A stretch of DNA of 62,468 bases from Bacteroidia bacterium (GCA_044374175.1 JBILPB010000003.1:1-62468), one strand, 5' to 3'; shown: positions 1 to 35,440, counted from the first letter of the stretch. Translations and numbers: made by a program. Notes: a model not told the origin generated them from the sequence alone.

Positions 1-2
1 AT

Positions 3-917
3 TTTGATGAATTATACGCCTTAATTGAACTTTCCGACAATTTAACTAAAAAACCAAGAGTGGCCATTAGAGTTAATATGGATACAGGCATCTATCCTAT
101 GTGGGATCGTTTTGGTTTTAATTATGAGAACGGCACTGCCTGGAATGCCATTACCAAAATTGTTGCTTCTGGAAAACTAAATCTGGTGGGCCTTCATTGC
201 CACATTGGCACCTATATGCTCGCACCTTGGGCCTATGCAACGGCAGCATCAAAGTTGTGTGACCTTGCATGGCATGCAAAAAATCAATTAAACAATCCAG
301 TTCAGTACCTAGATCTTGGAGGTGGTTTTCCGAGCGCTAATACACTTAAAGGAGCCTATTTACCTGGCTCAGATACTGTGCCTCATATTGAAGAATTTGC
401 CGAAGCTATTGCAAGCACAATTATAGCTTATGGCTTTAAACCAGACGAATTGCCTTTGCTTATTTTAGAGAGTGGTAGAGCATTGATTGATGATGCAGGA
501 TATTTATTAGGAACTATTTTAGCCAACAAAAGGTTGAGTGATGGCCGAAGAGCAACTATCTTAGATTTTGGTGTAAATATACTTTTTACCTCATTTTGGT
601 ACGACCATAAAATTAGTCCTGCGCAAGATTTTACGCATCACTCCGAAGATCAGGTTTTATATGGACCACTTTGCATGAACATTGATGTTATTAGAGAAAG
701 TGTAAATTTACCACTTTTAAATAAAGGAGATCAAGTGGTAGTGCATAAAGTTGGGGCCTACAACATGACACAATGGATGCAATTTATTGCGATGAGACCA
801 AATGTGATTATGATTGATACCAAGGGAGAAACGCATTTAATTAGAAAAAAAGAAACATTGCAATATTTAGAAATGCCCGAAGAAATGCCATTGCACTTGA
901 AAGAGTTTAAATTATAA
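3..917 (+). CDS. Fold-type III PLP-dependent decarboxylase (DAP/Orn/Arg decarboxylase family), 5'-partial
   Basis: Frame is open from position 3 (FDELYALIELSDNLTKKPRVAIRVN), so the true start lies upstream of the window. Motifs GLHCHIGT, LDLGGGF, ESGR, GPLC..D and VGAY are present. Confidence 0.9.
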   Translation, partial: FDELYALIELSDNLTKKPRVAIRVNMDTGIYPMWDRFGFNYENGTAWNAITKIVASGKLNLVGLHCHIGTYMLAPWAYATAASKLCDLAWHAKNQLNNPVQYLDLGGGFPSANTLKGAYLPGSDTVPHIEEFAEAIASTIIAYGFKPDELPLLILESGRALIDDAGYLLGTILANKRLSDGRRATILDFGVNILFTSFWYDHKISPAQDFTHHSEDQVLYGPLCMNIDVIRESVNLPLLNKGDQVVVHKVGAYNMTQWMQFIAMRPNVIMIDTKGETHLIRKKETLQYLEMPEEMPLHLKEFKL

Positions 918-927
918 CTAGTAAAAA

Positions 928-3102
928 ATGATTAAGAAAAAAGCAGGATTTATTTTTGAAGGCGTAATCAACAGTTACTCTGTCTTGTTTTTTTCTAATC
1001 ATAAGGTATTTGCATACTTATTACTGGTTATAAGCTTTTTTAATCCTGCTGCTGGTTTAGCTGGTTTAATAGCTGTTTTAACTGCGGTTTTTACAGCAAC
1101 TACAATGGGATTTAATGCAGCATCAACCAAAGCAGGTTTTTATAGTTTTAATGCTTTGCTTATAGGTATTGGTTTGGGTTCTTTTTTTGAAAGTTCTCCT
1201 GTGTTTTTCTTCTTATTAATTTTAGCATCTTTATTTACTTTGGTGCTATCGGTTACGCTAAGTGGTGTTTTAGGAAAATATGGCTTACCTTTTTTATCTA
1301 TTCCCTTTATTACTACTTTTTGGATACTCCTTCTGGCCACCAAAGAGTTCAGCAATTTGGGATTGAGTCAGAGAAATATTTATTGGATCAATGAAATGTA
1401 TGCTGTTGGGGGTAAACCCTTGTTAAGTTTATTTAATAGCATCGAAAATATTCCTATTCCAAAATGGCTCTCTACCTATTTCAGAGCCTTGAGTTCCATC
1501 TTTTTTCAGGATAATATTTTAAGTGGTTTTTTACTTTCGATAGGCATTTTAGTTTACTCAAGAATTGCCTTTTCACTCAGTTTAATTGGCTTTTTTGGGG
1601 CTTATTTGTTTAACGATTTTACTGGTGCCTATGAGGCTGGCATCAACTCCTATCATTTGGGTAGTAATTACATGATGACAGCCATGGCAATAGGTGGTTT
1701 CTTTGCTATACCGAGCTTCTATAGTTATATATGGGCATTTTTTAGTGTTCCCATTACTAATATTTTGGTGATTGCCCTCTCAAAAGTTTTTGGGGTTTTT
1801 GCTTTGCCTATTTTCTCGTTACCATTTTGCATCATGATTTTGTTGTATTTATACTTTTTAAAAATGCGAATTTTAGCAGGAAAATTGGTTCTAACACCCA
1901 TTCAACATTACTCTCCAGAAGTTAATTTATATCAGTTTAAAAATGGCAGTGAGCGGTTAAAAAATGAATATTATTTTAAATTTAATTTGCCTGTGATCGG
2001 AGAATGGGCAGTTACACAAGGTTATGATGGAAACATTACCCATAAAGATGATTGGAGCAAGGCCTTAGACTTTATGATTTTAGATCAACAACTTAAATCA
2101 TTTTCTGGCAACGGAACCGCACTTGAAAATTTTTACAGCTATAACAAACCCGTATTGGCCGCGGGAGATGGCTATGTGCAGGAAATTGTAGACTATATTG
2201 AAGATAATCCAATTGGAGAAATTAACAGAGAACAAAATTGGGGAAATTCAATAATATTGTATCATTCCATAGGTTTATTTTCAAAGTTATCGCATCTTAA
2301 GAAAAACTCATTTATTGTAAAGCAAGGCGACTACGTAAAAAAGGGACAAGTGCTTGCTTATTGCGGTAATTCTGGAAGATCACCTGAACCACATTTACAT
2401 TTTCAAATTCAATCAGCACCTTATATTGGCAGTAAAACACTGGCTTATCCAATCAGTTATTTTTATCAGAGTGATGGAAAAGACATTCAATATCTAACAT
2501 TTTCTACTCCTCAAGAAGGCAGCTTTGTTGCAAATATCAATATCAACAAATTATTGCATCAAGCATTTGCCTTCCAACCAGGATATAGTATTAAATATAA
2601 AGAAGGAAACACGATTGAAACGTGGACTGTGTTCACTGATGCCTACAATCAAACCTATATTAGTTGTAAGGAAAACAACGCGGTAGCCTACTTTGTAAAC
2701 AATGAAACTGTTTTTTATTTTACTAACTTCTATGGAAGTAAAGCCTCCATATTGTATCAATTTTATTTATCTATATTTAAAGTTGTATTGAGTTACATGC
2801 CGCAAGTTATCATCAACGATGTGCTTCCATTAAGTATGGTGCAAGCGCCTTTTGTAAAATTAATACAAGATTTTGTGGCTCCGTTTGTGCAACTTATAAA
2901 ACCAAAGTACACGTTAAATTATACAAGTATAGATGATGAACATTTTACTTCTGAAATAACGCTTGAATCTATAATTGAGATTGACGCTATGGGTTATAAA
3001 AGTGTTTTCAGAACTAGCCAAATAATTTTAAGCAATGGAAAATTAAATCAATTAGTGATTAATCAAGCTGGCAAGGAGAGAGTTTTTACATGTATAGATT
3101 AG
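928..3102 (+). CDS. Urea transporter (UT) family membrane domain fused to an M23 metallopeptidase domain and a C-terminal extension
   Basis: The first ~310 aa are hydrophobic with duplicated UT-like halves (GFYSFNALLIG/PFLSIPF and GSNYMMTAMA/PIFSLPF). They are followed by M23 motifs: HKDDWSKALDF, VLAAGDG, NWGNSIIL, SHLKKNS..VKQGDYVKKGQVLAYCGNSGRSPEPHLHFQ. Confidence 0.85.
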   Translation: MIKKKAGFIFEGVINSYSVLFFSNHKVFAYLLLVISFFNPAAGLAGLIAVLTAVFTATTMGFNAASTKAGFYSFNALLIGIGLGSFFESSPVFFFLLILASLFTLVLSVTLSGVLGKYGLPFLSIPFITTFWILLLATKEFSNLGLSQRNIYWINEMYAVGGKPLLSLFNSIENIPIPKWLSTYFRALSSIFFQDNILSGFLLSIGILVYSRIAFSLSLIGFFGAYLFNDFTGAYEAGINSYHLGSNYMMTAMAIGGFFAIPSFYSYIWAFFSVPITNILVIALSKVFGVFALPIFSLPFCIMILLYLYFLKMRILAGKLVLTPIQHYSPEVNLYQFKNGSERLKNEYYFKFNLPVIGEWAVTQGYDGNITHKDDWSKALDFMILDQQLKSFSGNGTALENFYSYNKPVLAAGDGYVQEIVDYIEDNPIGEINREQNWGNSIILYHSIGLFSKLSHLKKNSFIVKQGDYVKKGQVLAYCGNSGRSPEPHLHFQIQSAPYIGSKTLAYPISYFYQSDGKDIQYLTFSTPQEGSFVANININKLLHQAFAFQPGYSIKYKEGNTIETWTVFTDAYNQTYISCKENNAVAYFVNNETVFYFTNFYGSKASILYQFYLSIFKVVLSYMPQVIINDVLPLSMVQAPFVKLIQDFVAPFVQLIKPKYTLNYTSIDDEHFTSEITLESIIEIDAMGYKSVFRTSQIILSNGKLNQLVINQAGKERVFTCID

Positions 3103-4298
3103 CAATCATCATATGGTTTTGTTTAAGTTGTGTAAGCTCGGTAAGTAGTCAGCAGATTACCTATGGCTATTTTGATAGTTTAAGCTATGCACAATATGTG
3201 GCGGGCGATTGGGATCATTTATTGCAAACTGCTGAAATTGCCAAAAATGCCGATATCAGTTTTCCTTTGTTAAGTATGAGAATAGGTTATGCTGCCCTAA
3301 TGAAAGGCAATAATAGTTTATCATTAAAGCATTATTCAAACGCTTTGGAATTTGATAGTTATAATCAAGATGCACTTTATTATGCTGTGCTCAACAATAC
3401 CTTACTTTCGAGAAGAGATGCTGCATCGTATATTTCTTTAAATTTAAATGATGCTATCAAAAAGCCATTAAATGTGGGATATAAAAAGTTGGTAGAAATA
3501 ATAGATATAGAATTGAGCTTTAAGTCTACCAATAATGAAACGCGTAAGCTAGGTCAATACTATAGGTTTGGCATTGGAAATAGAATTAATTACCGTTGGA
3601 AACTTTATCATAGCTTTATAACCTACAGACAGAATTTATTAGAGCCTAAAACTAATCAGAGAAATGCTGGTCCTCCAAACAGAAACGCACCAATAAGTTT
3701 TAGAAGTTTCTTAACACATGATTATCAATACTTTTTAAAATCTGAAGTATGTATAAATTCTAAATTCTCATTGACTAATGCATTTCATTACACACATACT
3801 AATTTTGATGATGCAACTTATAATACCTATATTTTTAATATTGGGCTTAAAATAACACAACCATTTATTGATTATAAAATTGAGTTAAACGCAGGTCCAA
3901 TGCTTGATTCATTGCTAGCTCAAGTGGCAGTATCATCGACATACCAGCCATTTGGAAATTTAATTTTTTATGGAAACAGTAGATTGAGTTTTCAAAAAAG
4001 AACCCACCAATCTCAACTTAATTTTTCGCAAATGCTTGGGTTTAAACTTAGTAATAAATTATGGTTAGAAACACATGCTACACTTGGACAAATAAAAAAC
4101 TTAATTGACAACGATGCCCTTTATATTTACGATGCACTTGATGCTGGTAAATTTAGAATTGGGGCAAGCCTATTGATACCTTTTACACCAAAACTTACCT
4201 TCCAAGGAAATTATTATTTCGAACCAAAAATACTATATTTACAAAACAACATTTACAATTTAAATTCATTTACATTAGGAATATCATGGAAACTATAA
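3090..4298 (+). CDS. Secreted protein with N-terminal TPR-like helices and a probable C-terminal outer-membrane beta-barrel
   Basis: Signal peptide, a TPR-like segment (RIGYAALMKGNNSLSLKHYSNALEFDSYNQDALYY), alternating aromatic beta-strands in the C-terminal part, ending GISWKL. Confidence 0.55.
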   Translation: MYRLAIIIWFCLSCVSSVSSQQITYGYFDSLSYAQYVAGDWDHLLQTAEIAKNADISFPLLSMRIGYAALMKGNNSLSLKHYSNALEFDSYNQDALYYAVLNNTLLSRRDAASYISLNLNDAIKKPLNVGYKKLVEIIDIELSFKSTNNETRKLGQYYRFGIGNRINYRWKLYHSFITYRQNLLEPKTNQRNAGPPNRNAPISFRSFLTHDYQYFLKSEVCINSKFSLTNAFHYTHTNFDDATYNTYIFNIGLKITQPFIDYKIELNAGPMLDSLLAQVAVSSTYQPFGNLIFYGNSRLSFQKRTHQSQLNFSQMLGFKLSNKLWLETHATLGQIKNLIDNDALYIYDALDAGKFRIGASLLIPFTPKLTFQGNYYFEPKILYLQNNIYNLNSFTLGISWKL

Positions 4299-4906
4299 AA
4301 AAAATATTCATTGCTTTTGCAATTATTAGTGTTCAAAATTATGCATTTGCGCAAACAGAAGTGGCGCAGCAAAAAGCCTTTTCGGCCAGTTATATAGCAG
4401 AAGGAAAATATAATTATACTGAAGCCATTACCCAAATAAACAATGTTTACTTAGAAGGAAATTATGAAATGAATTTGCGTTTAGGTTGGCTAAATTACTT
4501 GACAAAGAATTATACAAATGCTATTAAGTATTATGAAAAAGCTACCACTTTAAAACCTTATGCTATTGAAGCAAAATTTGGTTTAATAAAGCCATTAGCA
4601 GCTTTAGAGAGTTGGGATAAGGTGATTAAGCAATATGAATCTATACTTATTATTGATCCGCAAAGCACTGTTGCTAATTACTACTTAGGTTATGCTCTTT
4701 ACAACAGAAAACAATATGAAACTGCCAGTAAGCACTTTGAGAAGGTGGTAAATCTTTATCCTTTTGATTATGACAATTCTATTATGTTGGCCTGGACTTA
4801 TTTTCGTTTAGGCAAAAATAATGAAGCTAAAGTGCTTTTTAATAAAGTGCTATTGATGAGCCCAAATGATGCATCGGCTTTAGAGGGATTAGCATCTTTT
4901 AAATAA
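4286..4906 (+). CDS. Exported tetratricopeptide-repeat protein
   Basis: Signal peptide (AFA-Q) and several TPRs, e.g. ANYYLGYALYNRKQYETASKHFEKVVNLYP. Confidence 0.85.
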   Translation: METIKKIFIAFAIISVQNYAFAQTEVAQQKAFSASYIAEGKYNYTEAITQINNVYLEGNYEMNLRLGWLNYLTKNYTNAIKYYEKATTLKPYAIEAKFGLIKPLAALESWDKVIKQYESILIIDPQSTVANYYLGYALYNRKQYETASKHFEKVVNLYPFDYDNSIMLAWTYFRLGKNNEAKVLFNKVLLMSPNDASALEGLASFK

Positions 4907-4950
4907 CAAAAAAAGGTGTGTTGTAATTTCCAACACACCTTTTTTTGTTA
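4904..4950. terminator. Bidirectional intrinsic terminator
   Basis: Perfect 20-bp inverted repeat TAACAAAAAAAGGTGTGTTG / CAACACACCTTTTTTTGTTA with a 7-nt loop, between convergent genes. Confidence 0.9.
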
Positions 4951-4964
4951 GAAGTAAAAATTGT

Positions 4965-5405
4965 TTATTGTTTAAATCCTACAAGTACAGCAGCACAACC
5001 TACTTTACTTATTTCATTTGATGCCTTAGCGGCAGTAGGTATAATAACCACTACCTTCATTTGTTGAGTACTAGCTACTTCAAATTCCCAAAACTTTGCG
5101 AAGTTGTGATCTTTGTTATCGAAAACAAGTTTGTTCTTGTTATCAAAAACTTGAAATTGTGCTTTTCCTATAGATTCTTGAGAGCAAATAAGCAAACGAT
5201 AACTCATTCCCGAGTAAAAGGTTAAATCTAATTCTGCCTCTTCGCCTGGCGCCATCTGTTGAATATTTAACTGGCCATTATGAGTGAAAGGATTTAATTC
5301 TGGCATACAAGTTTTTTTTGCAAACTGGTTGCACTGTGCTTTTGAAAGGCCCGAAAATCCAGTAAGAAGGAAAATCGAAAATAATATCTTAAATGTTGTT
5401 TTCAT
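4965..5405 (-). CDS. Hypothetical secreted protein with four Cys and a beta-rich fold
   Basis: Signal peptide ending SKA-Q, 146-aa ORF, co-oriented with the upstream lipoprotein. Confidence 0.75.
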   Translation of the reverse strand: MKTTFKILFSIFLLTGFSGLSKAQCNQFAKKTCMPELNPFTHNGQLNIQQMAPGEEAELDLTFYSGMSYRLLICSQESIGKAQFQVFDNKNKLVFDNKDHNFAKFWEFEVASTQQMKVVVIIPTAAKASNEISKVGCAAVLVGFKQ

Positions 5406-5423: not shown

Positions 5424-6314
5424 CTAACTAATTATCATTGTTCTAATCGCTGTAATTTTTTTGGTAATTTCAGCAAGCTGAGCGGGTGTTAAAGTTAACT
5501 CGCCTGAAGAACCAATAACTGTTTTTTGTGCAGCAGCATCAGTTTTAACTTCGGCAGGAGGTACATCTGTCATTTTTACATTATCATATATCGTTTTCAA
5601 TGCTTTTAACTCTGTCATCATTTCTGGCGCATTATCATTAGCTTGATTAGTCTCTAACAATCCAATAAGGTTTTCTAAGATTAATTTTTGTTCTGCAATT
5701 CTCTTAACAATCATTTGATTGTTAGCATTTGATGATGCAATATTTACAGAAATATATAAGCCTTCGATCCAACCACCTGCAACCACTAATGCAGAAACAC
5801 CAGCGCGATCATTATTTTTTAAATAAATATCTGTTTCAAGGTAGGTATCAGAAATAATCTTTAACAATGAATCTTTGTTGTTTAGATTTTTCTCCATACG
5901 TTTTACTGTATTTTCGTTGATAGCGCCAGTAATACCTAAACCATCAGCCAATTTTTTACAAACACCCATGTAAACTATAGCTTCTTGGGTTTGATCGAAA
6001 GTGCTGGTATAACTAAGATCGGCTCCAAAAACACCAAGATTCATAGCCTTTTGAATAATTGATGTGTATTTAGCTTCGTTAGAGGCCGGATTCAACATGT
6101 TTTTATTGTAGTTTGCACCAGTTGCCTTAATCATTGCCGACAACTCGCTAGGAGATGGCACTGCATAAAATACTTTAGCAACTTTGTTTTTACTTTCAAT
6201 TGCTGCTGGATCTACATCTTCTGTATCCGACTTAGAACCATTATTACAAGCAAATAATGATGAAATAATTGCCAAAGCAATTACAAAATTTAATTTAGCA
6301 CTTAACCACTTCAT
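5424..6314 (-). CDS. Hypothetical helical lipoprotein
   Basis: Lipobox LFAC after a hydrophobic leader; 296-aa ORF. Confidence 0.8.
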   Translation of the reverse strand: MKWLSAKLNFVIALAIISSLFACNNGSKSDTEDVDPAAIESKNKVAKVFYAVPSPSELSAMIKATGANYNKNMLNPASNEAKYTSIIQKAMNLGVFGADLSYTSTFDQTQEAIVYMGVCKKLADGLGITGAINENTVKRMEKNLNNKDSLLKIISDTYLETDIYLKNNDRAGVSALVVAGGWIEGLYISVNIASSNANNQMIVKRIAEQKLILENLIGLLETNQANDNAPEMMTELKALKTIYDNVKMTDVPPAEVKTDAAAQKTVIGSSGELTLTPAQLAEITKKITAIRTMIIS

Positions 6315-6459
6315 AATGAGTTGTTTTAAAGTTTATTTACAAAAAATCACTCACAAACTTACAACTTTTAAAGATAAAAACAAATCATTTTTTACTTTCA
6401 TTCAATAAATTAATTGGAAAACAGCGCTTTTGTTGTTTATTTGCTGGATAAAATAATTC

Positions 6460-7962
6460 ATGCAAATAATTTTTGCCATACTTTTTGCAAGCGCTTTGGC
6501 TTGTTTGATCGTCAATTGGAGATTATTTAAAAATAAAAGGTTTAGCTCAACAACTTTTTGTGGCCTTTTTATTTTAAAACTGTTTTTTGGTGTTTGTTTT
6601 TATCTGGTATATACAGCCTATTATAGCAACAATCAAACAAGCGATATGCATAAGTACTATAATGATGCTGTAAAAATTTTTGAGCTTACAAAGGAAAATC
6701 CACGGTCATATTTGAGTATTTTAACTGGTCTTGAAATTGATTACAAAGATGAAATAATTACCCAACAGCTCAATTTTTGGTATCAAGAAGAAAGTGCCTC
6801 AGTTATTAATGACTCAAGAATGGTTATACGATTTAATTTGTTGATGCTTCCTTTGAGCAAAGGTAATATATACCTGCACTTAGTAATGATGGTGTTCCTC
6901 TCATTTATAGGGCTTTTTCTAATTTATTTAGGTTTTGAGAAATACTTCATGGAGAGTGAAATTTTACTGCTAATTTCATGTTTTGGAATACCTTCTGTTA
7001 TGTTTTGGTCATCGGGCATTATGAAAGAAGGCTTATTGATATTTTTCTTTGGCTTATTGATTTATACCCTATTTATCATCCAAAAAAAATCGCTCCGAAG
7101 GGTTGTATTATTTTTGCTCTCTATTGTGGGCCTATTTTTCGCAAAATTCTATGTCGCGCTTTCCCTCATCCCGTCCTTACTTTTCTTGTTTATTGGATCA
7201 ATAAATAAAACAAAATCAACATTATGGCAGCTCGGTTTAACTTGTATAATTGTTGTTTTTAGCGCCATAGGCTTTAATACCCTATTCAACAATGAGCCAC
7301 TCCAAAAATTATCTAAGAAGCAAAACGATTTTATTAACCTTTCTATTGGTGGCGTTTACCTGGCCAATACACAGTATCCGTATGATACTATTTTTACATT
7401 AAAGCCAAGTTCACTTCATAGTTTAACCGTCATAACAGAAGGAAAAACAGCTAAGCTTAAACCAGGAACGATTTATCATCATTGGAAAAACCCCGGTTAT
7501 GCAGATACATTGGTGGCTAACAAGAAACTCAATTTATATACTGTACTTAAAGTACTTGAACCAACAGGAAGTGCAATATCGCTCAAACGTTTAATGCCAA
7601 ACTATATAAGTGTAATAAAACTGTTTCCCGAAGCTTTTATGAATGTTTTTTTCAGACCATTTATATTTGATGTTGAGAATTTTTTCTCCTTATTTGCTTG
7701 CATTGAAAACATCGCATTATTGCTGCTTTTTATTTTTATGATTTGGAAGTATAAAAAGCCCGAAAGCAGTATTCAAAGCGTAATTATTTTTTCTTTTTTA
7801 TTTGTGTTTACACTCTACACCCTTGTTGGCTTAACTACTCCAGTATTAGGAGCAGCGGTAAGGTATAAAGTGCCTGCACTACCCTTTTTATTGATAAGTA
7901 TATTTTTACTTATTGACTTTACTAAATACAAGGTTTATTTCAATTTAATAAACAAGAAATGA
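6460..7962 (+). CDS. Polytopic membrane protein, possibly a GT-C-like glycan polymerase/transferase
   Basis: About 11-12 hydrophobic segments, an acidic early loop (QTSDMHKYY), a WSSGIMKE motif and C-terminal GAAVRYKVP. Confidence 0.55.
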   Translation: MQIIFAILFASALACLIVNWRLFKNKRFSSTTFCGLFILKLFFGVCFYLVYTAYYSNNQTSDMHKYYNDAVKIFELTKENPRSYLSILTGLEIDYKDEIITQQLNFWYQEESASVINDSRMVIRFNLLMLPLSKGNIYLHLVMMVFLSFIGLFLIYLGFEKYFMESEILLLISCFGIPSVMFWSSGIMKEGLLIFFFGLLIYTLFIIQKKSLRRVVLFLLSIVGLFFAKFYVALSLIPSLLFLFIGSINKTKSTLWQLGLTCIIVVFSAIGFNTLFNNEPLQKLSKKQNDFINLSIGGVYLANTQYPYDTIFTLKPSSLHSLTVITEGKTAKLKPGTIYHHWKNPGYADTLVANKKLNLYTVLKVLEPTGSAISLKRLMPNYISVIKLFPEAFMNVFFRPFIFDVENFFSLFACIENIALLLLFIFMIWKYKKPESSIQSVIIFSFLFVFTLYTLVGLTTPVLGAAVRYKVPALPFLLISIFLLIDFTKYKVYFNLINKK

Positions 7963-8015
7963 TTCAAACATTTAAATATGCATTATCATTGCAAATAAAA
8001 ACAAGTTCAAAATAC

Positions 8016-8023
8016 TAAATTTG
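8016..8023 (+). promoter_or_regulatory. Bacteroidota primary-sigma -7 element for ribF
   Basis: TAAATTTG matches TAnnTTTG, 17 nt upstream of the GTG start. Confidence 0.55.
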
Positions 8024-8040
8024 CACAATTATTAAAAGCA

Positions 8041-8970
8041 GTGAAAATACATTACGATTTAGAATCAATACCTACATTGCTGCGTACAGCAGTTACCACT
8101 GGCACTTTTGACGGTGTACATTTAGGACATAAAACAATTATAGAAAGGCTTATTTCTGCTGCAAAAAATATTGATGGAGAATCGGTTTTGCTTACCTTTT
8201 ACCCTCATCCTCGAATGGTATTGTTTCCTGATGATGATCAGATTAAAATGCTTAACACACCGCTTGAAAAAGAGCAATTATTGCAAGCTTGTGGCATCGA
8301 CCACCTGGTTGTAATTCCTTTTACAAAGGAGTTTTCAAGACTTTCATCATTAGAATTTGTAAGAAATATTTTATCAAATGCCTTAAAAGCAAAAAAATTA
8401 GTGATTGGCTACGACCACCATTTTGGAAGGAATCGTGAAGGAAGTTTTGCTCATTTACTTGAATTTGGTTCCTTATATGGTTTTGAAGTAGAAGAAATTC
8501 CAGCCCAAGATATAGATCATGTAGCTATAAGTTCATCAAAAATAAGGCAAGCCTTAGTATCGGGTGATTTATCAACGGCAAATAATTATTTAGGTTATGA
8601 ATATAGTATCACTGGAAAAGTAATAAAAGGTAAACAACTTGGCAGAACAATTGGTTATCCCACTGCTAATATTGAAATTAATGATAAGTACAAATTAATT
8701 CCAGCCATTGGGGTTTATGCTGTAAAAGTGAAATATAGCACTCAACTTTTTGATGGTATGCTTAGCATAGGCAAAAATCCTACTGTTACAGCAAATGGAC
8801 CTTTGACCATCGAGGTTAATATCTTTGATTTCAATCATGAAATTTATCATAAAGAAATTACTATTTACTTTTACAAGAAATTACGTGATGAAGAGAAATA
8901 TGATTCTCTTGATGAGTTAAAAGCCCAGCTTGCTGTTGATAAAGAAAACGCAATTAAACATCTTTTATAA
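8041..8970 (+). CDS. ribF: Bifunctional riboflavin kinase/FAD synthetase
   Basis: GTFDGVHLGH, VIGYDHHFG, ISSSKIR, GRTIGYPTAN, EVNIFDF. Confidence 0.97.
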   Translation: MKIHYDLESIPTLLRTAVTTGTFDGVHLGHKTIIERLISAAKNIDGESVLLTFYPHPRMVLFPDDDQIKMLNTPLEKEQLLQACGIDHLVVIPFTKEFSRLSSLEFVRNILSNALKAKKLVIGYDHHFGRNREGSFAHLLEFGSLYGFEVEEIPAQDIDHVAISSSKIRQALVSGDLSTANNYLGYEYSITGKVIKGKQLGRTIGYPTANIEINDKYKLIPAIGVYAVKVKYSTQLFDGMLSIGKNPTVTANGPLTIEVNIFDFNHEIYHKEITIYFYKKLRDEEKYDSLDELKAQLAVDKENAIKHLL

Positions 8971-9588
8971 ATGAAAAATTACAGTAAATACGGTTTAAGT
9001 TTCTTATTGTTTTTTTTATTGACTCATGGTATGTTATTGCATGCTCAAAATTATCAGAAAGGGCTTTCTGAAACTGATTTAAAAATGTACACTTCAATTG
9101 AAGAAGGCTTATTAAATCGAGATAGTGTAAGGTATTTAAGTTTAAAACACAAAAAACTCAAAGTTATTCCCAAGGAAGTATTTCTTTTTAAAAATCTTGA
9201 AATTTTAGACCTTAGTAAAAACAAACTAGATGAGCTCCCTGAAGAAATCGAAAAACTTGAGAAACTCCGCGAATTAAGTGTTTCCAATAATAACTTAACC
9301 TCTCTTCCGATACAAATAGGTAAATTAATTTCTTTAAAAAAAATTATTGCCTACCAGAATAATATTGCGCTATTGCCCACTACTATTGGAAATTTAAAAA
9401 ATCTTGAATTATTAGATTTGTGGAGCAACGAAATAGAAACTTTTCCTGAAGAAATTAAAGACTTAAAACAACTTAAGTTTGTAGATTTAAGAGGGATTAT
9501 GCTTTCAGATGAACAAAAGGCCACAATTAAATCGCTTTTACCCAATGCCCAAATTGAATTTTCGATGGGTTGTAATTGTTTGAAATAA
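8971..9588 (+). CDS. Exported leucine-rich-repeat protein
   Basis: Signal peptide and about five 23-aa LRRs (LxxLxLxxNxLxxLPxxIxxL). Confidence 0.9.
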   Translation: MKNYSKYGLSFLLFFLLTHGMLLHAQNYQKGLSETDLKMYTSIEEGLLNRDSVRYLSLKHKKLKVIPKEVFLFKNLEILDLSKNKLDELPEEIEKLEKLRELSVSNNNLTSLPIQIGKLISLKKIIAYQNNIALLPTTIGNLKNLELLDLWSNEIETFPEEIKDLKQLKFVDLRGIMLSDEQKATIKSLLPNAQIEFSMGCNCLK

Positions 9589-9739
9589 TAAGAACCTTAA
9601 ACCTTATAGCTTTATTAAATTTTAGTAGGATTAATGCATTTAAGAATTAATTCATTAAAACTACTTGAAATAAAGCATAAAAAAGCTTCATTTCTTTTTT
9701 TTAATTTACGATATTCGCAGCAAAACTTATAAAATCAAT

Positions 9740-10768
9740 ATGGAGTTCAGAAAAATGGTTACAACACTTGGACAGTTTATTATTGAGCGTCAGGCAGATT
9801 ATCCTTATTCTAAAGGAGAACTATCTAGATTATTAAGAGACATTGGCATAGCTGCTAAAATTGTAAACCGCGAAGTTAATAAGGCAGGTTTGGTAGATAT
9901 ACTTGGTGAAGTTGGTGAAACGAATGTGCAAGGTGAAAGTGTAAAAAAATTAGACACCTTTGCCAACGATCAATTTATAAGTGCATTGAGTACGGGTGGT
10001 GAATGTTGTGCCATAGCCTCTGAAGAAAACGAAGAGTTTATTCCTATTGACAATTCAGTATCTCAAAATGCTAAATATGTGGTTTGTATGGACCCTTTGG
10101 ATGGTTCTTCCAATATTGATGTAAACGTTTCAATAGGAACCATTTTCTCGATATACAGAAGAAAGTCGAAACCACAAGGGCCAGGCACTATTGAAGATTT
10201 TTTACAAAAAGGTACCGAACAAGTTGCTGCCGGATATATTATTTATGGATCATCAACCATGTTGGTATACACTACAGGCAATGGCGTTAATGGTTTTACA
10301 TTAGACCCAAGTATTGGTGAATTTTGTTTGTCACACCCAGATATGAAAGCACCCAATATGGGTGAAATATATTCTATTAATCAAGGAAATTTTGTGCATT
10401 TCCCTCCAGGGGTAAAAGATTACATAAAATATTGTCAAGATTTAGATAAAGCTACAAACCGCCCTTATACCTTGAGATACATAGGTTCTTTGGTGGCCGA
10501 TTTTCATAGAAATTTAATTAAAGGCGGTATTTATATTTATCCACCCACCTACAAATCGCCTAACGGTAAATTAAGATTACTGTATGAATGTAATCCATTG
10601 GCCTTTATTGCTGAACAAGCTGGCTCTAAGGCTACCGATGGCTTTAGAAGAATTTTAGAAATAGATCCAACTGATATTCACCAACGTGTTCCTTTGTTTA
10701 TTGGCTCAACCGAAATGGTGGAAAAAGCAGAAGATTATATGCTCAAGCAACCTGCTTTACAAGGTTAA
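9740..10768 (+). CDS. fbp: Class 1 fructose-1,6-bisphosphatase
   Basis: [39 protein letters not shown]. Confidence 0.97.
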
Positions 10769-10839: not shown

Positions 10840-12069
10840 TTACTTTCCTAACTTGTTTTTTAAGTTGGCATCAATTGTATTTAAAAAATCTTCGGTAGTT
10901 AAATAGTTTTCTTTTGCTACGTTATTTCCATAAATACAAACGGCTAAATCTTTGGTCATTTTACCACTTTCAACCGTTTCAATACAAACTGCTTCTAAAG
11001 CTTCGCAAAACTGCACCAATTCCTTATTACCATCTAATGTACCTCTAAAAGCTAAGCCTTGTGTCCAGGCAAAAATAGAAGCAATTGGATTGGTTGAAGT
11101 TGGTTTACCTTCTTGATGCATGCGATAATGGCGTGTAACTGTTCCGTGAGCTGCTTCAGCTTCCATGGTTTTTCCATCAGGAGTAATTAATGAACTTGTC
11201 ATTAATCCTAAAGAGCCAAAACCTTGCGCTACTGTATCACTTTGCACATCGCCATCATAATTTTTGCAAGCCCAAACAAAATTACCATTCCATTTTAAAG
11301 CAGAAGCTACCATATCATCAATTAAACGATGCTCGTATGTAATGCCTAAGGTATCCATTCTGCCTTTAAATTCTGTTTGATAAATTTCTTCAAAAATATC
11401 TTTAAACCTTCCATCATACTTTTTTAAAATGGTATTTTTTGTAGAAAGATACAAAGGCCATTTTTTCATCAAGGCTTGATTAAAGCAAGAACGCGCAAAT
11501 CCTTTAATAGACTCATCGGTATTATACATGGCTAATGCCACACCATCTCCTTTAAAGTTAAACACTTCGAAAGATTGAGGCGTAGAACCATCTTCTGGTG
11601 TGTAAGTAATGGTTAACTTACCGTTTCCTTTGGTTACAAAATCAGTTGCTCTGTATTGATCTCCAAATGCGTGACGACCGATACAGATTGGAGCAGTCCA
11701 ATTAGGAACTAAACGCGGAATGTTTTTCATTACAATGGGTTCACGAAATACAGTACCATCTAAAATATTTCTGATAGTACCATTAGGCGATTTCCACATT
11801 TGTTTTAAATTGAATTCCTTTACACGTGCCTCGTCTGGTGTAATAGTGGCACACTTAATACCCACATTATATTTTTTTATTGCTTCAGCAGCCTCAACTG
11901 TTACCTTATCATCCGTAGCATCACGATTTTCAATGCCCAAATCATAATATTTAATATCTAAATCAAGGTATGGATGAATTAATTTATCTTTAATAAAAGC
12001 CCATATCACTCTTGTCATTTCATCCCCATCCAGCTCTACTACTGGGTTGCTAACTTTAATTTTGCTCAT
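10840..12069 (-). CDS. icd: NADP-dependent isocitrate dehydrogenase (dimeric, eukaryote-like subfamily)
   Basis: [49 protein letters not shown]. Confidence 0.98.
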
Positions 12070-12111
12070 TTGGTTTAATGTTTAAAAGGTAATTATTAGT
12101 TTAATTAATGA

Positions 12112-15108
12112 TTAATATCCGAATACATCTTCAAGCTTAAGATAAGTAAGTTTACCATAACCTTCTAATGTTTTAATGTCTAAAGTATTTTTGTTTCCTA
12201 GCACCATAATATTGTATTTTTTATCTTTAAAATGTGCTTGTTGAAACGCTTTAATATTTTCAAATTTCATTGCTGGTACTGCTGCAAAAACATCCTTTCT
12301 CATATCATAAGAGTTCCCCATTTTTTTAGCGTTCATATAGTTAAATAAAATACCACTTTTAGTAATTCTTTCGGTTCTAATTTGCTCTTCAACTGCTTTT
12401 TTGGCGTTGTTAAACATGTTTTCACTTTCTGGTAAATTGTTCATTAATTCAAACATACCTTTCATTGCTTCTGGTAATTTATCGGCTTGTGTTCCAATGT
12501 ATGCCAGCGCATAATGAGATCTTTCTTTATTTTGAGGCCCACGGTAACTACTAAACACAGAGTAGGCTAAAGCTTTTGATTCGCGCATGGTTTGAAAAAC
12601 AATACTTCCCATTCCACCTCCAAAATATTCATTAAATAAAGTTATGGTGGGCAAGTTATTTCTATTGTATTTTTCATCTTTAGAAAGCATCATAATTTCA
12701 GCTTGTTTCATATCATAATCAATTACAAAAACTTCTGTTTGTTTATTATCTTGTTCGGTAAAACCAATTGGTGTTGGTATTGCTTTTAAAGGCGTTGGTG
12801 CCTTATGATTTGCGTTGATTTTGTTGGTAAATATATCGGCTGTTAAAGGGCCATAATAATAAATATCATGCTGATAGGAAGTTAAATCTTTTATTCTTTG
12901 AATTAACTCATCAGGATTAATAGCTTTTAGCTCTTCAGCTGATAAAATATTGGTATAAGGAGACTTTGAACCATACACTGCATAATTATACATTCCACTC
13001 CACAATATTTTGCCTTTACTTAACTTATCGTCTTCGCGTTGTTTTAAAATAGATGATACTAAATTATCTAAAGCTACTTTATCTGCTTTTGCGTTCTTAA
13101 GCAAACCTTCAAATAGTATAAGGGCAGTTTCAAAACTTTCGTTCAAGCCTTCTAAACTAACATAAACTTGATCTTCTGAAGTAAACACATTATAGTTACA
13201 TCCAAGTTTGTAAAATTCTTGCTTAAGCTGCTCATTGGTTAATTCTGCTGTTCCCAAGAAATTTAAATACTCAACAGCAAGTCCTAATTTTTTGTCATGA
13301 TTTTTACCCATTTCAACCACATAATACAAGTTAAACAAATTGTTTTCTTTGTTTTGGGTGGTATAAATAGGAGCTCCAACCATAGTTTTATATTGTATGA
13401 TATCTTTACTATAATCTAAGAAAACAGGCTCAATAGCTGGTGATTTAGCATCCATAATGCTTTTCAAGAAAGGAGATTGCGCATCACGATTTACTTCAAC
13501 AGGAGTAATTTCTGGCTTTATAACTTTCTGAACATTTTTATCTTCGCCAGTGCGTTTGTATACTACTACATAGTTTTGATTTAAATTGGCTTTTGCCCAA
13601 GCTACTATTTGCTCTTTAGTGATTGCGCCTAATTTATTTATTTGATTAGTATAATCAGTCCATGATTTTTCATTTACAAATGCATTAACCATGGCCATTG
13701 CTCTTGAACCATTGTCTTCATATTCTTTGGTTTGTTGCAATTTTATATCATTGATAATCGCCTTCATCATCCAATCAGGAAAATCACCTTTTTTTAATTT
13801 TTCAATCTCTGCTAACACTAAATCTTTCGTTTGCTCAAGTGTTTGGCCTTCTTTAGCATTGGCATCCAAAATAAAAACACCATAATCTTTTAAAATATAT
13901 GGAAACACCGATGAACTAAGTACCTTTTGTTGTTGATTTAAATTTAAATCCATTAAACCTGCTGTTCCATTGTATAAAATTTTAGCTGCAATCTCAGCAA
14001 GCTCTGCGTCTGCAGTACTTTGACCACCAAGGCGGTATGCAAGTAGCATTGATTCTGCGTCTGGTCCAAAAACTTCCTTAACAATTGGCTGAGTAATTGG
14101 CTCTTCTTTACCTGGCGTATAAACAGGCACCGGTTTTGATTTCATACTTCCAAAACGACTGTCAATTAAACGAATGGTTTGCTCGTAATCAAAATCACCC
14201 GACATACAAATGGCCATGTTGTTTGGCACATAATAAGTATCATAATATTCCTTTATTTTTTTAATGGAAGGATTTTTCAAATGTTCAATTGTACCAATGG
14301 TAGTTTGTTTACCGTAGTTATTGTTTGGAAATATGGCAGCAAACAATGTTTCAAAAACTTTACGACCATCGTTATCCAAACCTCTGTTTTTTTCTTCATA
14401 CACTGCTTCTAACTCTGTATGAAAAATACGCAAAACAGGATTGCGGAAACGTTCAGCTTCAATTGTTAACCACTTCTCTAATTGATTTGATGGTATATCG
14501 TTTACATAAACAGTTTGCTCAAATGATGTAAAAGCATTGGTACCAGTAGCACCAATTGAACTCAACATTTTATCATACTCATTGGCAATGGCGTATTTTG
14601 CAGCTACACCACTTATACTGTCGATTTGGTGATACATTGATTTGCGCTTCTCTTCATCCTTAGTAACGCGGTATGCTTCGTAAAGCGCTTCAATTTTATC
14701 AAGTTCAACTTTTTCTTTTGCAAAATCTAAACTTCCATATTTATCAGTACCTTTAAATAACAAATGCTCCAAATAATGGGCTAAACCTGTGGCATCTGCA
14801 GGATCACTTTTACTTCCAGCCTTAGTTGCAATATAAGTTTGGATACGAGGAGCATCTTTGTAAACACTTAAATAAACTTTTAAACCATTGGCCAAAGTAT
14901 AGATTCTTGCATTTAATAAATCGCCTTTAACCGATTCATACTTGTATTCTATATCACTTTTTTGTTGAGCTTGCGCAGCTTTGCTAGCTTCAGCAGGTGT
15001 TGGACTTATTTGAGTGCTTTTTAAAACTTGCACGTTCTTTTGAGCTATACTGCAGGCAGATACAATTGCAACAATATAAAGACTTAATTTAATCTTCAAT
15101 TTAATCAT
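12112..15108 (-). CDS. M16 (insulinase-family) zinc metallopeptidase, four-domain, probable lipoprotein
   Basis: HYLEH (HxxEH), NAFTS, RESKALAYS; SAC lipobox-like leader. Confidence 0.93.
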   Translation of the reverse strand: MIKLKIKLSLYIVAIVSACSIAQKNVQVLKSTQISPTPAEASKAAQAQQKSDIEYKYESVKGDLLNARIYTLANGLKVYLSVYKDAPRIQTYIATKAGSKSDPADATGLAHYLEHLLFKGTDKYGSLDFAKEKVELDKIEALYEAYRVTKDEEKRKSMYHQIDSISGVAAKYAIANEYDKMLSSIGATGTNAFTSFEQTVYVNDIPSNQLEKWLTIEAERFRNPVLRIFHTELEAVYEEKNRGLDNDGRKVFETLFAAIFPNNNYGKQTTIGTIEHLKNPSIKKIKEYYDTYYVPNNMAICMSGDFDYEQTIRLIDSRFGSMKSKPVPVYTPGKEEPITQPIVKEVFGPDAESMLLAYRLGGQSTADAELAEIAAKILYNGTAGLMDLNLNQQQKVLSSSVFPYILKDYGVFILDANAKEGQTLEQTKDLVLAEIEKLKKGDFPDWMMKAIINDIKLQQTKEYEDNGSRAMAMVNAFVNEKSWTDYTNQINKLGAITKEQIVAWAKANLNQNYVVVYKRTGEDKNVQKVIKPEITPVEVNRDAQSPFLKSIMDAKSPAIEPVFLDYSKDIIQYKTMVGAPIYTTQNKENNLFNLYYVVEMGKNHDKKLGLAVEYLNFLGTAELTNEQLKQEFYKLGCNYNVFTSEDQVYVSLEGLNESFETALILFEGLLKNAKADKVALDNLVSSILKQREDDKLSKGKILWSGMYNYAVYGSKSPYTNILSAEELKAINPDELIQRIKDLTSYQHDIYYYGPLTADIFTNKINANHKAPTPLKAIPTPIGFTEQDNKQTEVFVIDYDMKQAEIMMLSKDEKYNRNNLPTITLFNEYFGGGMGSIVFQTMRESKALAYSVFSSYRGPQNKERSHYALAYIGTQADKLPEAMKGMFELMNNLPESENMFNNAKKAVEEQIRTERITKSGILFNYMNAKKMGNSYDMRKDVFAAVPAMKFENIKAFQQAHFKDKKYNIMVLGNKNTLDIKTLEGYGKLTYLKLEDVFGY

Positions 15109-24389: not shown

Positions 24390-25439
24390 TTAAATCAAGC
24401 CATTACTCTTAGCTACCATATTACAAATTCTAAATAACAACCTACTACTTACATTTGCATCCCAATCGTTATTGCCAGTTTCATTTAAATCAAAAGCAAT
24501 GATTTGCCTGCCACTTTCAACCACTTTTTCCAATAAATACAACACTTCATCTGTTTCAAACCCACCTGCAACAGGAGTTCCAGTATTAGGACATAATTTT
24601 GGATCTAAAGCATCAGCATCAAAACTTAAATAAACTTTTTGCGGCAATTCATTTACAATATCATTAAAGATATCATCTATTTTTTTGCCTTTAAATTGCG
24701 CTTGCTTTATATCACGATCAAAAAAAGTTTTAACTCTTCCATTTGCTTGTTCAATATAATTGACTTCTTCTTCACAATAATCTCGAATGCCCACTTGCAC
24801 TAATTTACTTATTTGGGGTAATTTTAAAGCGTTGAACATGATACTTGCATGTGAATACTCGAAACCTTCAAACGCAGCTCTTAAATCGCAATGTGCATCT
24901 AATTGTAAAATTCCAAAATTTTCAAACTTTTCAGTAAGTGCCTCTATAATACCCAAAGGTGTGCTATGATCGCCACCTACTCCACCAATAATTTTACCTG
25001 AACTAATAATTTTTGATGTATACTCTTTTACTTGTTGATTAAATATTTTACCCCCTTCATTCACCTCATTATACAAGGTTTCTGCATGTTTTCCGTTTTC
25101 ATTTAAGGTTCCAGAAGTAATTTGTAATAATATCTGAACTGCTTTACTTCTTAGTTTATCACTTTTAGAAACCCAATCTTTATTTACCTCATCCATACAA
25201 ATGCCAATTTTCCAGGCTTCTTTAATGTAAGGATCAAATAAATCTACTTGATGTGAAGCATCAAAAATTAAATCGGGTGCATTTGCAGTACCAGCGCTAA
25301 ATGAAACAGTAACTTCCCAAGGCAGTGGCAATAAAATAACAGCAGCTTCTTCCTTATTAAAAGGCAATCCAAAAATATTGCTATCTTCAGTGGCTGGATC
25401 GTTGGGGTTAAATTGTTTTATTTTTTCTTCTTTTGACAT
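24390..25439 (-). CDS. speB: Agmatinase / ureohydrolase family
   Basis: GGDHS, DAHCD, HAS, SFDADALDP...TGTP. Confidence 0.85.
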   Translation of the reverse strand: MSKEEKIKQFNPNDPATEDSNIFGLPFNKEEAAVILLPLPWEVTVSFSAGTANAPDLIFDASHQVDLFDPYIKEAWKIGICMDEVNKDWVSKSDKLRSKAVQILLQITSGTLNENGKHAETLYNEVNEGGKIFNQQVKEYTSKIISSGKIIGGVGGDHSTPLGIIEALTEKFENFGILQLDAHCDLRAAFEGFEYSHASIMFNALKLPQISKLVQVGIRDYCEEEVNYIEQANGRVKTFFDRDIKQAQFKGKKIDDIFNDIVNELPQKVYLSFDADALDPKLCPNTGTPVAGGFETDEVLYLLEKVVESGRQIIAFDLNETGNNDWDANVSSRLLFRICNMVAKSNGLI

Positions 25440-35056: not shown

Positions 35057-35440
35057 ATGAAAAAAATCACAACAAGCCTCCTCTTCTTTTTAATGGGCTT
35101 TTTGGGATTGGCTAACCAAGTTAATGCGCAAACAAATGCCATTCTGGTGCCAACTTACCAAAATCAATCCGAAATGCCCTCTAAAACAAGACCAGAGCAA
35201 AAACTGCTCAAGCAACTTCCAATGGTTGTAATCAATGAAAATGGACCTGACTTGACCTTATTTGAGTCAGAGATGAAACAATGGACGTTAAAAAACCCTT
35301 CGGTTTTAAGTCAATTAGACAAAACTGTCATTGATTTAATTAATAAAAAACAATTTGAAAAATTAGCTGAAATTTTGATTGAAATGGGCCACAGCAAAGA
35401 AGTTGCCGTAATAAACTATATAGGAGGTAAGCATGAATAA
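35057..35440 (+). CDS. Small secreted helical hypothetical protein overlapping the giant T9SS cargo start
   Basis: Clear signal peptide (VNA-Q); 8-nt ATGAATAA overlap with 35433. Confidence 0.75.
   Translation: MKKITTSLLFFLMGFLGLANQVNAQTNAILVPTYQNQSEMPSKTRPEQKLLKQLPMVVINENGPDLTLFESEMKQWTLKNPSVLSQLDKTVIDLINKKQFEKLAEILIEMGHSKEVAVINYIGGKHE

Follow-up and report, generated by a model that had tools for sequence, protein, structure and literature searches.

We analyzed a 62,468-nucleotide stretch of DNA from a Bacteroidia bacterium (GCA_044374175.1 JBILPB010000003.1:1-62468; hereafter the window), which opens with part of an operon for a decarboxylase, a channel-peptidase fusion protein and two exported proteins. 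Open reading frame (ORF) calls place four co-oriented genes on the + strand. The window begins inside the gene for a pyridoxal 5'-phosphate (PLP)-dependent decarboxylase recognized by Pfam, the 3' part of which is present (1-917, open at the window start; the frame from 3 to 917 encodes 304 aa). After a 10-nt gap (918-927) follows a gene for a 724-aa protein (928-3102, +), in which a urea transporter (UT) fold is joined to an M23 peptidase domain, as seen in Pfam matches and in an AlphaFold2 (AF2) model. This gene overlaps by 13 nt (3090-3102) with that of a 402-aa outer-membrane protein built from tetratricopeptide repeats (TPRs) and a β-barrel (3090-4298, +; AF2, Foldseek and profile search). 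The latter in turn overlaps by 13 nt (4286-4298) with the gene for a 206-aa TPR protein (4286-4906, +), which by its Pfam matches and N-terminal sequence carries a signal peptide and is predicted to be periplasmic. A bidirectional intrinsic terminator closes the operon at 4904-4950. Its inverted arms (4904-4926 and 4928-4950) are 23 nt each, and the transcribed repeat forms a stem of 20 bp (dG -26.4 kcal/mol, z = -7.3 relative to shuffled sequences) with seven A residues before it and seven U residues after it. The hairpin was absent from the output of a consensus terminator scan, and it is direct folding of 4904-4950 that reveals the strong stem. As an A-run precedes the stem and a U-run follows it, the terminator can serve both the operon and a convergent gene at 4965-5405. 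ORF calls and RNA folding agree on the four-gene unit with one gap, two short overlaps and a single strong terminator that the original prediction had read from the DNA.

The same prediction held that the operon continues upstream of the window and named PqqD-like and ATP-grasp genes as upstream members of similar neighborhoods. Both points are borne out by a contig, L001, that differs from the window by 7 mismatches over 13,102 nt. Immediately 5' of the UT–M23 gene and co-oriented with it, L001 encodes 80 aa of a PqqD-family protein, 351 aa of an ATP-grasp enzyme and all 452 aa of the decarboxylase (ORF call at 8632-9990). The operon is thus a self-contained set of six genes, of which the window has part of the third and the whole of the last three.

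We next considered how widely this gene set is conserved. A scan for relatives of the UT–M23 fusion protein, with one genome per species, found that at least 537 species genomes encode one, and a homologue search with the 724-aa protein returned 2,977 homologues. Of the 80 records listed by the scan, almost all are titled Bacteroidota, and one (L054) is labelled Bosea thiooxidans. Among the carriers sampled are members of Chitinophagaceae, Ferruginibacter, Mucilaginibacter, Pedobacter, Paludibacter, Prolixibacteraceae, Lentimicrobiaceae and Flavobacteriales, and several cultured strains; Mucilaginibacter myungsuensis, M. psychrotolerans and Pedobacter rhodius are cultured carriers. In all 49 Bacteroidota loci that had enough flanking sequence to be testable, the six genes are present and colinear, with differing genes on either side, as expected from the earlier claim that they co-occur across genomes. 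Closer relatives share 57-92% identity with the window proteins. In distant loci the decarboxylase (61-79% identity to the window protein) and the ATP-grasp enzyme (60-75% to the protein of the window lineage) are the best conserved, followed by PqqD (46-68%), the UT–M23 protein (44-52%) and the 206-aa TPR protein (43-58%), the product of the last gene of the cassette, and the barrel protein is the fastest-evolving member (21-33%). These uneven identities fit a fixed internal chemistry combined with a surface-exposed outer part.

Related cassettes also occur far outside this group. Word-indexed searches with the ATP-grasp enzyme and the barrel protein gave close relatives only; an exhaustive representative search with the ATP-grasp enzyme yielded 231 clusters at E<1e-30, including tandem ATP-grasp proteins of ~710 aa, and reached variant forms. 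One locus of 56% GC (L089) holds the same six genes as the Bacteroidota cassette. A second locus of 56% GC (L091) encodes PqqD, a double ATP-grasp, the decarboxylase, a UT protein on its own and a DLH/S9 hydrolase. At 70% GC, L090 combines a TPR lipoprotein, PqqD, a double ATP-grasp and the decarboxylase with a UT::SIR2 fusion (11544-13217), and L094 combines an 857-aa TPR protein, a PqqD::ATP-grasp fusion (3550-4983), a second ATP-grasp-like protein and the decarboxylase with a UT::SIR2::GNAT fusion (7233-9344). Membrane::SIR2 is the fusion found in L096 (69% GC), next to PqqD, a double ATP-grasp and the decarboxylase. PqqD is followed in L092 (65% GC) by an ATP-grasp::decarboxylase fusion (8001-10616) and an unknown protein of 637 aa. 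L095 (46% GC) encodes TPR, PqqD, ATP-grasp, ATP-grasp-like, decarboxylase and UT proteins, the last cut by the contig end, and L097 (47% GC) encodes PqqD, an ATP-grasp enzyme, a 79-aa ORF, the decarboxylase, an unknown 449-aa protein, a GNAT and an NAD synthase. PqqD, ATP-grasp and decarboxylase form an invariant core, usually accompanied by a UT-fold channel that is fused or adjacent to an amide-bond enzyme, be it M23, SIR2, SIR2-GNAT or an α/β-hydrolase. The sirtuin domains that replace M23, together with GNAT, are canonical and carry a zinc ribbon. Exported TPR proteins are frequent in these variants (L090, L094, L095). The Bacteroidota operon is one form of a cassette found also in unrelated high-GC lineages, and the fusions of ATP-grasp to decarboxylase, of PqqD to ATP-grasp and of UT to SIR2 or SIR2::GNAT show that the proteins concerned act jointly. 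Relatives of the ligase are not always part of a cassette: L093 encodes a stand-alone ATP-grasp paralogue (8001-9056, 44% identical) beside GcpE and a PorZ-like gene, without PqqD, decarboxylase or UT.

Several accessory genes adjoin the cassette in part of the loci. A 167-aa GNAT (Acetyltransf_3) is encoded directly 5' of PqqD and co-oriented with it in 23 of 66 loci (for example L006 6658-7161; also L039, L041 and L054), and it shares 28% identity with the GNAT of the distant variant L097. Possible regulators of the cassette are seen in Prolixibacteraceae-type loci, where genes for a LytS-like histidine kinase and for a response regulator of the LytTR type directly precede PqqD (L015 4118-5971; L007 2739-4727). 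Some Bacteroidales and Lentimicrobiaceae have, between PqqD and the ATP-grasp gene, a gene for a secreted protein of 266-267 aa with a C-terminal sorting domain of the type IX secretion system (T9SS) (L007 6427-7230; L014 5060-5860; L017 4354-5154), which may have arrived there by chance or may serve the cassette of these lineages as a specific partner or as a substrate.

The decarboxylase is, judged from its sequence, an alanine-racemase-fold PLP enzyme of 452 aa from the clade of FigC, BtrK and the diaminopimelate decarboxylases (DAPDCs), and the window holds its residues 149-452, the 3' two-thirds. Pfam assigns it to Orn_Arg_deC_N and Orn_DAP_Arg_deC. Its closest relative in the PDB is 7kh2, the N-citrylornithine decarboxylase FigC/FslC (5.7e-52), followed by archaeal and bacterial DAPDCs, with BtrK still detectable (E 3.7e-20). 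The PLP lysine, the glycine loop, the ExGR motif and the catalytic Cys are kept. In DAPDCs, the motifs CE[ST]xD and (N)DxxRPxxY bind diaminopimelate (DAP). Here, the Cys-loop reads GPLCMNID, like GPSCMQHD in FigC and unlike the DAPDC motif, and the arginine of RPxxY is missing (CMNID and ILFTSFWY at the positions aligned with 1twi and 2p3e). The score against the lysA model TIGR01048 is 213.5 bits, below the cutoff of 297.9, and that against FslC is 205.5 bits, below the cutoff of 500. On the TIGR01048 score and the motif alignment we dropped LysA as the identity of this enzyme, in line with the earlier expectation that it is not an ordinary lysA product.

FigC, SbnH, AcsE, MccE, BtrK, DAPDC and D-ODC form one clade unrelated to polyamine synthesis, and FigC, SbnH, AcsE, MccE and BtrK act on amino acids tethered by the side chain: the moiety that they decarboxylate is by then linked to citrate, to a peptide-nucleotide or to a carrier protein (PMC7857480). 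By analogy, we infer that acting on tethered substrates may be the rule for the whole clade. No adjacent NIS (NRPS-independent siderophore) synthetase of the IucA/IucC type is present in the cassette; the neighbor of the decarboxylase is the ATP-grasp enzyme, adjacent in all cassettes and fused to it in L092.

The ATP-grasp enzyme matches ATP-grasp_3 and ATPgrasp_Ter, and its N-terminus is weakly PylC-like. Against NCBIfam it has no match to a graspetide model, the best being generic PRK12767 'CPSase-like' models; the pairing of a family ATP-grasp maturase with a core-motif precursor that marks graspetides was not found. The small protein belongs to the PqqD family (PF05402, E 1.2e-12, plus matches to lasso-type PqqD models of NCBIfam), and the cassette in this way has a recognition element of peptides that are made on ribosomes and modified after translation (RiPPs) beside a modifying enzyme. 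A role of PqqD as a LysW-like carrier that is charged at a C-terminal Glu was considered and dropped, as its C-terminal residues are not conserved. In L001, PqqD is preceded by a 208-nt leader that contains no small ORF. On the other side of this leader lies a gene for a PlsC/OlsA-type acyltransferase (6312-7067), likewise present in L010, which weakly resembles acyltransferases for lyso-ornithine lipids and lyso-glycine lipids and probably has nothing to do with the cassette. A precursor peptide encoded in the cassette was also rejected, because the recurrent small ORFs are all out-of-frame shadows of neighboring genes, namely those for GNAT or two-component systems.

In the fusion protein, Pfam detects UT (PF03253) at residues 13-310 (187.9 bits, gathering threshold 25) and Peptidase_M23 at 403-495 (58.8 bits, threshold 28.7). 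Foldseek matches its model to dvUT (E 9e-11, TM score 0.72-0.80) and to M23 structures. The membrane domain (residues about 13-315; 964-1872, +) aligns with dvUT and human UT-A2, and its sequence identifies it as a true UT fold. Its helices were placed by homology to solved UTs, as simple hydropathy did not separate them. UTs recognize urea through the motif Q(Pa)-T(5a)-Q(Pb)-T(5b) (PMC11589576). In our alignment with dvUT and UT-A2, the human residues Gln-67, Thr-176, Gln-231 and Thr-338 correspond to Val-19, Ser-124, Ser-190 and Ser-297, and over 18 homologues these positions are [VILAM], [ST], [SAT] and S. The urea-recognition motif is thus not conserved, with both glutamines lost, and the score against the Yut equivalog model TIGR03441 (120.7 bits) falls below its cutoff of 274.6. 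The altered pore would have a changed and probably wider selectivity. UT proteins of the variant cassettes keep the first Gln (GQV[FL]F), which is lost in the M23-linked family. Urease genes are found in none of the cassettes.

The M23 (LytM-type) domain (residues about 355-500; 1990-2427, +) keeps His-456 (sHL) and His-489-x-His-491 (HLHF), which align with the catalytic residues of lysostaphin and Csd, and His-372, Asp-381, His-456, His-489 and His-491 are invariant in 18 homologues. This conservation suggests an active peptidase. A C-terminal β-rich domain follows (residues about 503-724; 2434-3099, +), modeled by AF2 mostly as strands with a predicted local distance difference test (pLDDT) score of 80-90. 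It belongs to no known family, with no Pfam match at E<=10 and no PDB relative by profile search. A near-invariant Cys (Cys-722) lies 2-6 residues from the C-terminus of the fusion protein, also in the GC-rich homologue from L089.

The original prediction had taken the M23 domain for a periplasmic modifying enzyme. UT subunits have both termini inside the cell, and an extracellular loop connects their two halves (PMC11589576). Beyond the last UT helix (298-315), our model shows only an amphipathic helix before the M23 domain, and no further hydrophobic or transmembrane helix past the UT domain. In each of the 18 homologues the net charge of the linker (309-345) lies between +2 and +5, and the central loop is mostly negative. 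An intracellular UT C-terminus, the lack of an extra helix and the positive linker together suggest that M23 and the C-terminal domain lie in the cytoplasm. SIR2 uses NAD+ and GNAT uses acetyl-CoA; as these enzymes occupy the same position in the sister cassettes, the position of M23 should again be cytoplasmic. The M23 and C-terminal domains are thus probably cytoplasmic, and a periplasmic location is not supported.

The 402-aa protein has no family in Pfam or NCBIfam, and no Pfam match even at E<=10, DUF560 included. AF2 models it with a pLDDT of 86.7 as a signal peptide, a region of three TPR-like hairpins (25-127) and a barrel of 14 strands (133-401), and a profile search detects the TPR consensus at 32-97 (E 2.7e-5). 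The top Foldseek matches are the T9SS chain 8gl6_F, which is unnamed in the output and which we take to be PorV, OmpG, FadL and TodX; PelBC and BcsC rank lower. The combination of TPRs and β-barrel that had been proposed is thus seen in model, structural matches and profile alike. The 206-aa protein has a signal peptide (…NYAFA|QTE), TPR_1, TPR_2 and TPR_8 matches and faint TPR_Slam matches. Taken together, the component assignments agree with the proposal of a system that spans cytoplasm, inner membrane, periplasm and outer membrane. They lend little support to the further suggestion of a polymer-secretion layout resembling PgaA, PelB or AlgKE: there is no synthase or glycosyltransferase, the 14-strand barrel is nearer to PorV, OmpG and FadL, and the inner-membrane part has a narrow-channel fold rather than that of a polymer translocase. 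We thus dropped a polysaccharide-secretion layout, given the missing synthase, the barrel architecture and the structural matches.

We compared the cassette with known systems that share some of its components. In the FigA/FigC (FslA/FslC) pathway of rhizoferrin, and with SbnH and AcsE, a ligase joins an amino acid by its side chain to a carboxylate, and a decarboxylase of the clade then removes the α-carboxyl group. The cassette decarboxylase shares the C-M-[QN]-x-D loop with FigC, but its partners are ATP-grasp and PqqD rather than a NIS synthetase, citrate and siderophore genes and an MFS exporter are absent, and the FigA/FigC pathway has no counterpart of channel, peptidase, TPR protein or barrel. 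BtrI, BtrJ and BtrK of butirosin biosynthesis likewise comprise an ATP-grasp enzyme, an alanine-racemase-fold decarboxylase and a small partner (~80 aa), and act on a tethered amino acid. Here, however, the small protein is of the PqqD family and not a phosphopantetheinyl carrier, no such carrier being present, there are no aminoglycoside genes, and the system is envelope-associated. In scaffold-peptide ('pearlin') pathways such as those of 3-thiaglutamate and ammosamide, a peptide serves as the support on which ATP-dependent addition of an amino acid starts a small molecule, which is then tailored and set free by a peptidase (PMC11117183). The cassette lacks both a PEARL/LanB-type enzyme and a linked scaffold-peptide gene, and release by a channel-fused M23 or SIR2 enzyme is not known from those systems. 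FigA/FigC, BtrI/J/K, MccE and the pearlin pathways are the nearest parallels that we see in chemical logic, by analogy, and none of them has the PqqD–ATP-grasp pair, a UT–hydrolase fusion or a TPR-barrel.

The membrane-associated parts diverge in a similar way from their characterized relatives. With the UT/SLC14 proteins (dvUT, UT-A, UT-B, Yut) the cassette channel shares fold and Pfam family, but it has lost both motif glutamines, has Ser for both threonines, is fused to a 400-residue enzyme module and has no urease genes in its cassette. The M23 domain is of the same family as lysostaphin, MepM, ShyA and Csd1-3, with the catalytic His and HxH kept; the amide bonds cleaved by characterized members involve Gly or the amine on the side chain of DAP. 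It differs from them in its predicted cytoplasmic location behind a channel, in an H-x8-D in place of the HxxxD motif and in the 220-residue domain that follows. A TPR region joined to an outer-membrane barrel is known from Slam (type XI), PgaA, BcsC, PelBC and AlgK/E. The barrel of Slam has 14 strands, and the 402-aa protein shares with it only this TPR and 14-strand architecture, without DUF560 or a lipoprotein or hemophore cargo. Compared with PgaA and BcsC its TPR part is much shorter and no polysaccharide synthase is linked; the synthase, long TPR region and 16-18-strand barrel of synthase-dependent exopolysaccharide systems are all missing. PADLOC gave no defence-system match for any cassette component. 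We found no description of the cassette in the searchable literature, and the earlier statement that no function has been characterized for this gene set stands, although an earlier bioinformatic mention is still conceivable. The operon is real and strongly conserved and apparently uncharacterized, composed of known families in an arrangement without a characterized counterpart.

We tentatively propose that the cassette makes a small amine or amide on a peptide template, releases it in the cytoplasm at the mouth of the channel and then exports it, and we regard this full mechanism as possible, somewhat short of probable; what we say about the architecture of the cassette is far safer. All chemistry would take place in the cytoplasm, where PqqD would present a peptide or carrier whose gene lies outside the cassette; an unlinked precursor peptide gene may lie elsewhere in the genome. 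The ATP-grasp enzyme would attach an amino acid to it via the side chain, so that neither the α-amino nor the α-carboxyl group is blocked. Ligation through the side chain is proposed because the decarboxylase clade would require a free α-amino-acid end. The decarboxylase would then turn the tethered amino acid into a tethered primary amine, which the neighboring GNAT, present in many lineages, would probably acetylate. An N-acetylated amine is an amide of the kind that UT channels pass. The cytoplasmic M23 domain, or SIR2 or the hydrolase elsewhere, would cut the amide bond and free the small product at the inner pore mouth. This product, a neutral amide or amine of small size but not urea, would leave through the altered filter (both Gln lost, Thr to Ser). 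Passage across the periplasm and the outer membrane would fall to the TPR protein and the TPR-barrel. In a diamino acid, it is the amide at the side-chain amine that M23 DD-endopeptidases cleave, and sirtuins act in the same sense on Nε-acyl-lysine; these cleavage habits are consistent with ligation through a side-chain amine. A more specific claim, that an RRE (RiPP recognition element)-guided ligase, a tethered-substrate decarboxylase and an amide cleaver fused to a repurposed urea channel couple product release to passage, as a new kind of system found in several lineages, appears rather doubtful to us at present; in Bacteroidota, its outer-membrane leg would consist of a dedicated TPR protein and a new family of TPR-barrels.

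Several observations weigh against the proposed synthesis and export of a small molecule. No conserved small ORF for a precursor or carrier was found in the cassette or within 1.5 kb of it in about 60 loci, and the PqqD C-terminus offers no conserved acidic acceptor. If the hydrolase merely reversed the ligation, ATP would be spent on nothing more than a simple decarboxylation, a futile detour. The UT pore is narrow, charged amines should not pass through it, and the identity of the permeant is a guess. The cytoplasmic topology of M23 is itself deduced from the UT fold, the linker charge and the variants, and the AF2 model of the 724-aa protein is of moderate confidence (pLDDT 73). The first metal motif, His-372-x8-Asp-381, departs from the expected HxxxD and lies in a region of low pLDDT that does not align to solved M23 structures. 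Finally, the proposal gives no reason for an outer-membrane barrel to move a small molecule.

This last point is better accommodated if the cassette is a classical RiPP pathway, since a dedicated outer-membrane barrel suits a peptide better than a tiny solute. PqqD would then bind an unlinked precursor that the ATP-grasp enzyme cross-links or extends and the decarboxylase tailors, M23 would act as leader peptidase, another exporter and the TPR-barrel would provide the exit, and the UT domain would mainly be an anchor or platform. The PqqD family is the usual RiPP recognition element and is fused to the ligase in L094, MccE is an alanine-racemase-fold decarboxylase that acts on a peptide-nucleotide, and the cassette includes a peptidase. 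We nevertheless consider this unlikely, as a linked precursor gene is present in none of about 60 loci, the cassette lacks an ABC or MFS exporter, and a mere platform would not explain a UT fold kept across very distant variants, even as a stand-alone gene in L091, with conserved pore-lining positions. The lack of a small precursor gene would be expected if the substrate were instead a protein, with ATP-grasp and decarboxylase installing an aminoacyl-derived amine (for example an aminobutyryl- or aminoalkyl-amide) on a Lys, a Glu or a C-terminus, M23, SIR2 or the hydrolase removing it, and the membrane and TPR parts linking the modification to an envelope process. BtrK acts on a protein-tethered Glu, and the sirtuin domains that stand in for M23 in the variants, along with GNAT, are Nε-acyl-lysine deacylases. 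Such a writer and eraser pair has, however, no reason to keep a channel fold as the constant partner of the eraser, the cassette contains no conserved target candidate, and the exported TPR and barrel proteins are left without a role; we judge it quite unlikely.

Transport could also run inward, as UT channels are passive and bidirectional (PMC11589576; also known for the family at large). A solute, either a small amide or peptide-like, would enter by way of barrel and TPR protein, the UT-like channel would import it, M23 would hydrolyze it, and ligase and decarboxylase would convert it in a salvage or detoxification route. The 14-strand barrels FadL, TodX and OmpG are uptake channels, and a hydrolase at the inner mouth would trap the incoming substrate. 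An ATP-using ligase with a PqqD peptide chaperone is typical of biosynthesis rather than catabolism, though, no catabolic genes are linked to the cassette, and the 60-79% identity of ligase and decarboxylase beside a fast-evolving barrel fits a fixed internal chemistry, and we regard uptake as improbable to the same degree as protein modification. Further down in our estimate, and highly improbable, is an envelope role in which a periplasmic M23 acts on peptidoglycan to remodel it, or on a polymer or peptide in the course of its secretion, with TPR scaffold and barrel as in PgaA, PelB and AlgK/E. Most relatives of M23 are endopeptidases of peptidoglycan, the union of TPRs and barrel is reminiscent of PelBC and BcsC, both among the structural matches, and LytS/LytTR regulators adjoin some cassettes. 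Yet M23 is predicted to be cytoplasmic and is replaced by SIR2 or GNAT in variants, the cassette has no synthase, glycosyltransferase or c-di-GMP receptor, the barrel has 14 and not 16-18 strands, and the UT fold is no polymer translocase; peptidoglycan remodeling remains a minor possibility. That the decarboxylase is simply the LysA of the organism in a fortuitous gene order is next to impossible in our view: lysA TIGR01048 is its second-best family match (E 3.7e-63) and DAPDCs are close PDB relatives, but the score lies below the cutoff, CE[ST]xD and RPxxY are not kept, and the gene is strictly linked to five others in 49 of 49 loci and fused to ATP-grasp in L092.

Some further genes of the window were noted. 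Next to the operon lie genes for proteins of 146 aa (4965-5405, -) and 296 aa (5424-6314, -) with signal-peptide-like N-termini, and for a 500-aa protein (6460-7962, +) that looks like a polytopic membrane protein by sequence. None of the three has a Pfam or NCBIfam family; they are kept in close relatives only and lie outside the cassette. An arginase-family protein is encoded at 24390-25439 (-), ~20 kb from the UT-like gene and with no apparent link to the cassette. The arginase family includes urea-forming enzymes; urease was not seen among the window ORFs scanned. At 35433-43130 (+), a gene encodes a large protein of 2,565 aa, secreted or at the cell surface, that combines fn3, GEVED, PKD and galactose-binding-like domains with a sorting tail of the T9SS.

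If the proposed synthesis and export of a small amine or amide holds true, the cassette would provide the first non-urea role for the UT fold, and, with release coupled to the channel, a new natural-product class and a cytoplasmic M23 peptidase. Work on it would show whether M23 peptidases can act inside the cell, would assign a function to a new family of outer-membrane TPR-barrels and to the 220-residue domain, and would probably reveal a peptide-templated route to an amine or amide metabolite. As cultured carriers exist, genetics and metabolomics of the cassette are feasible.

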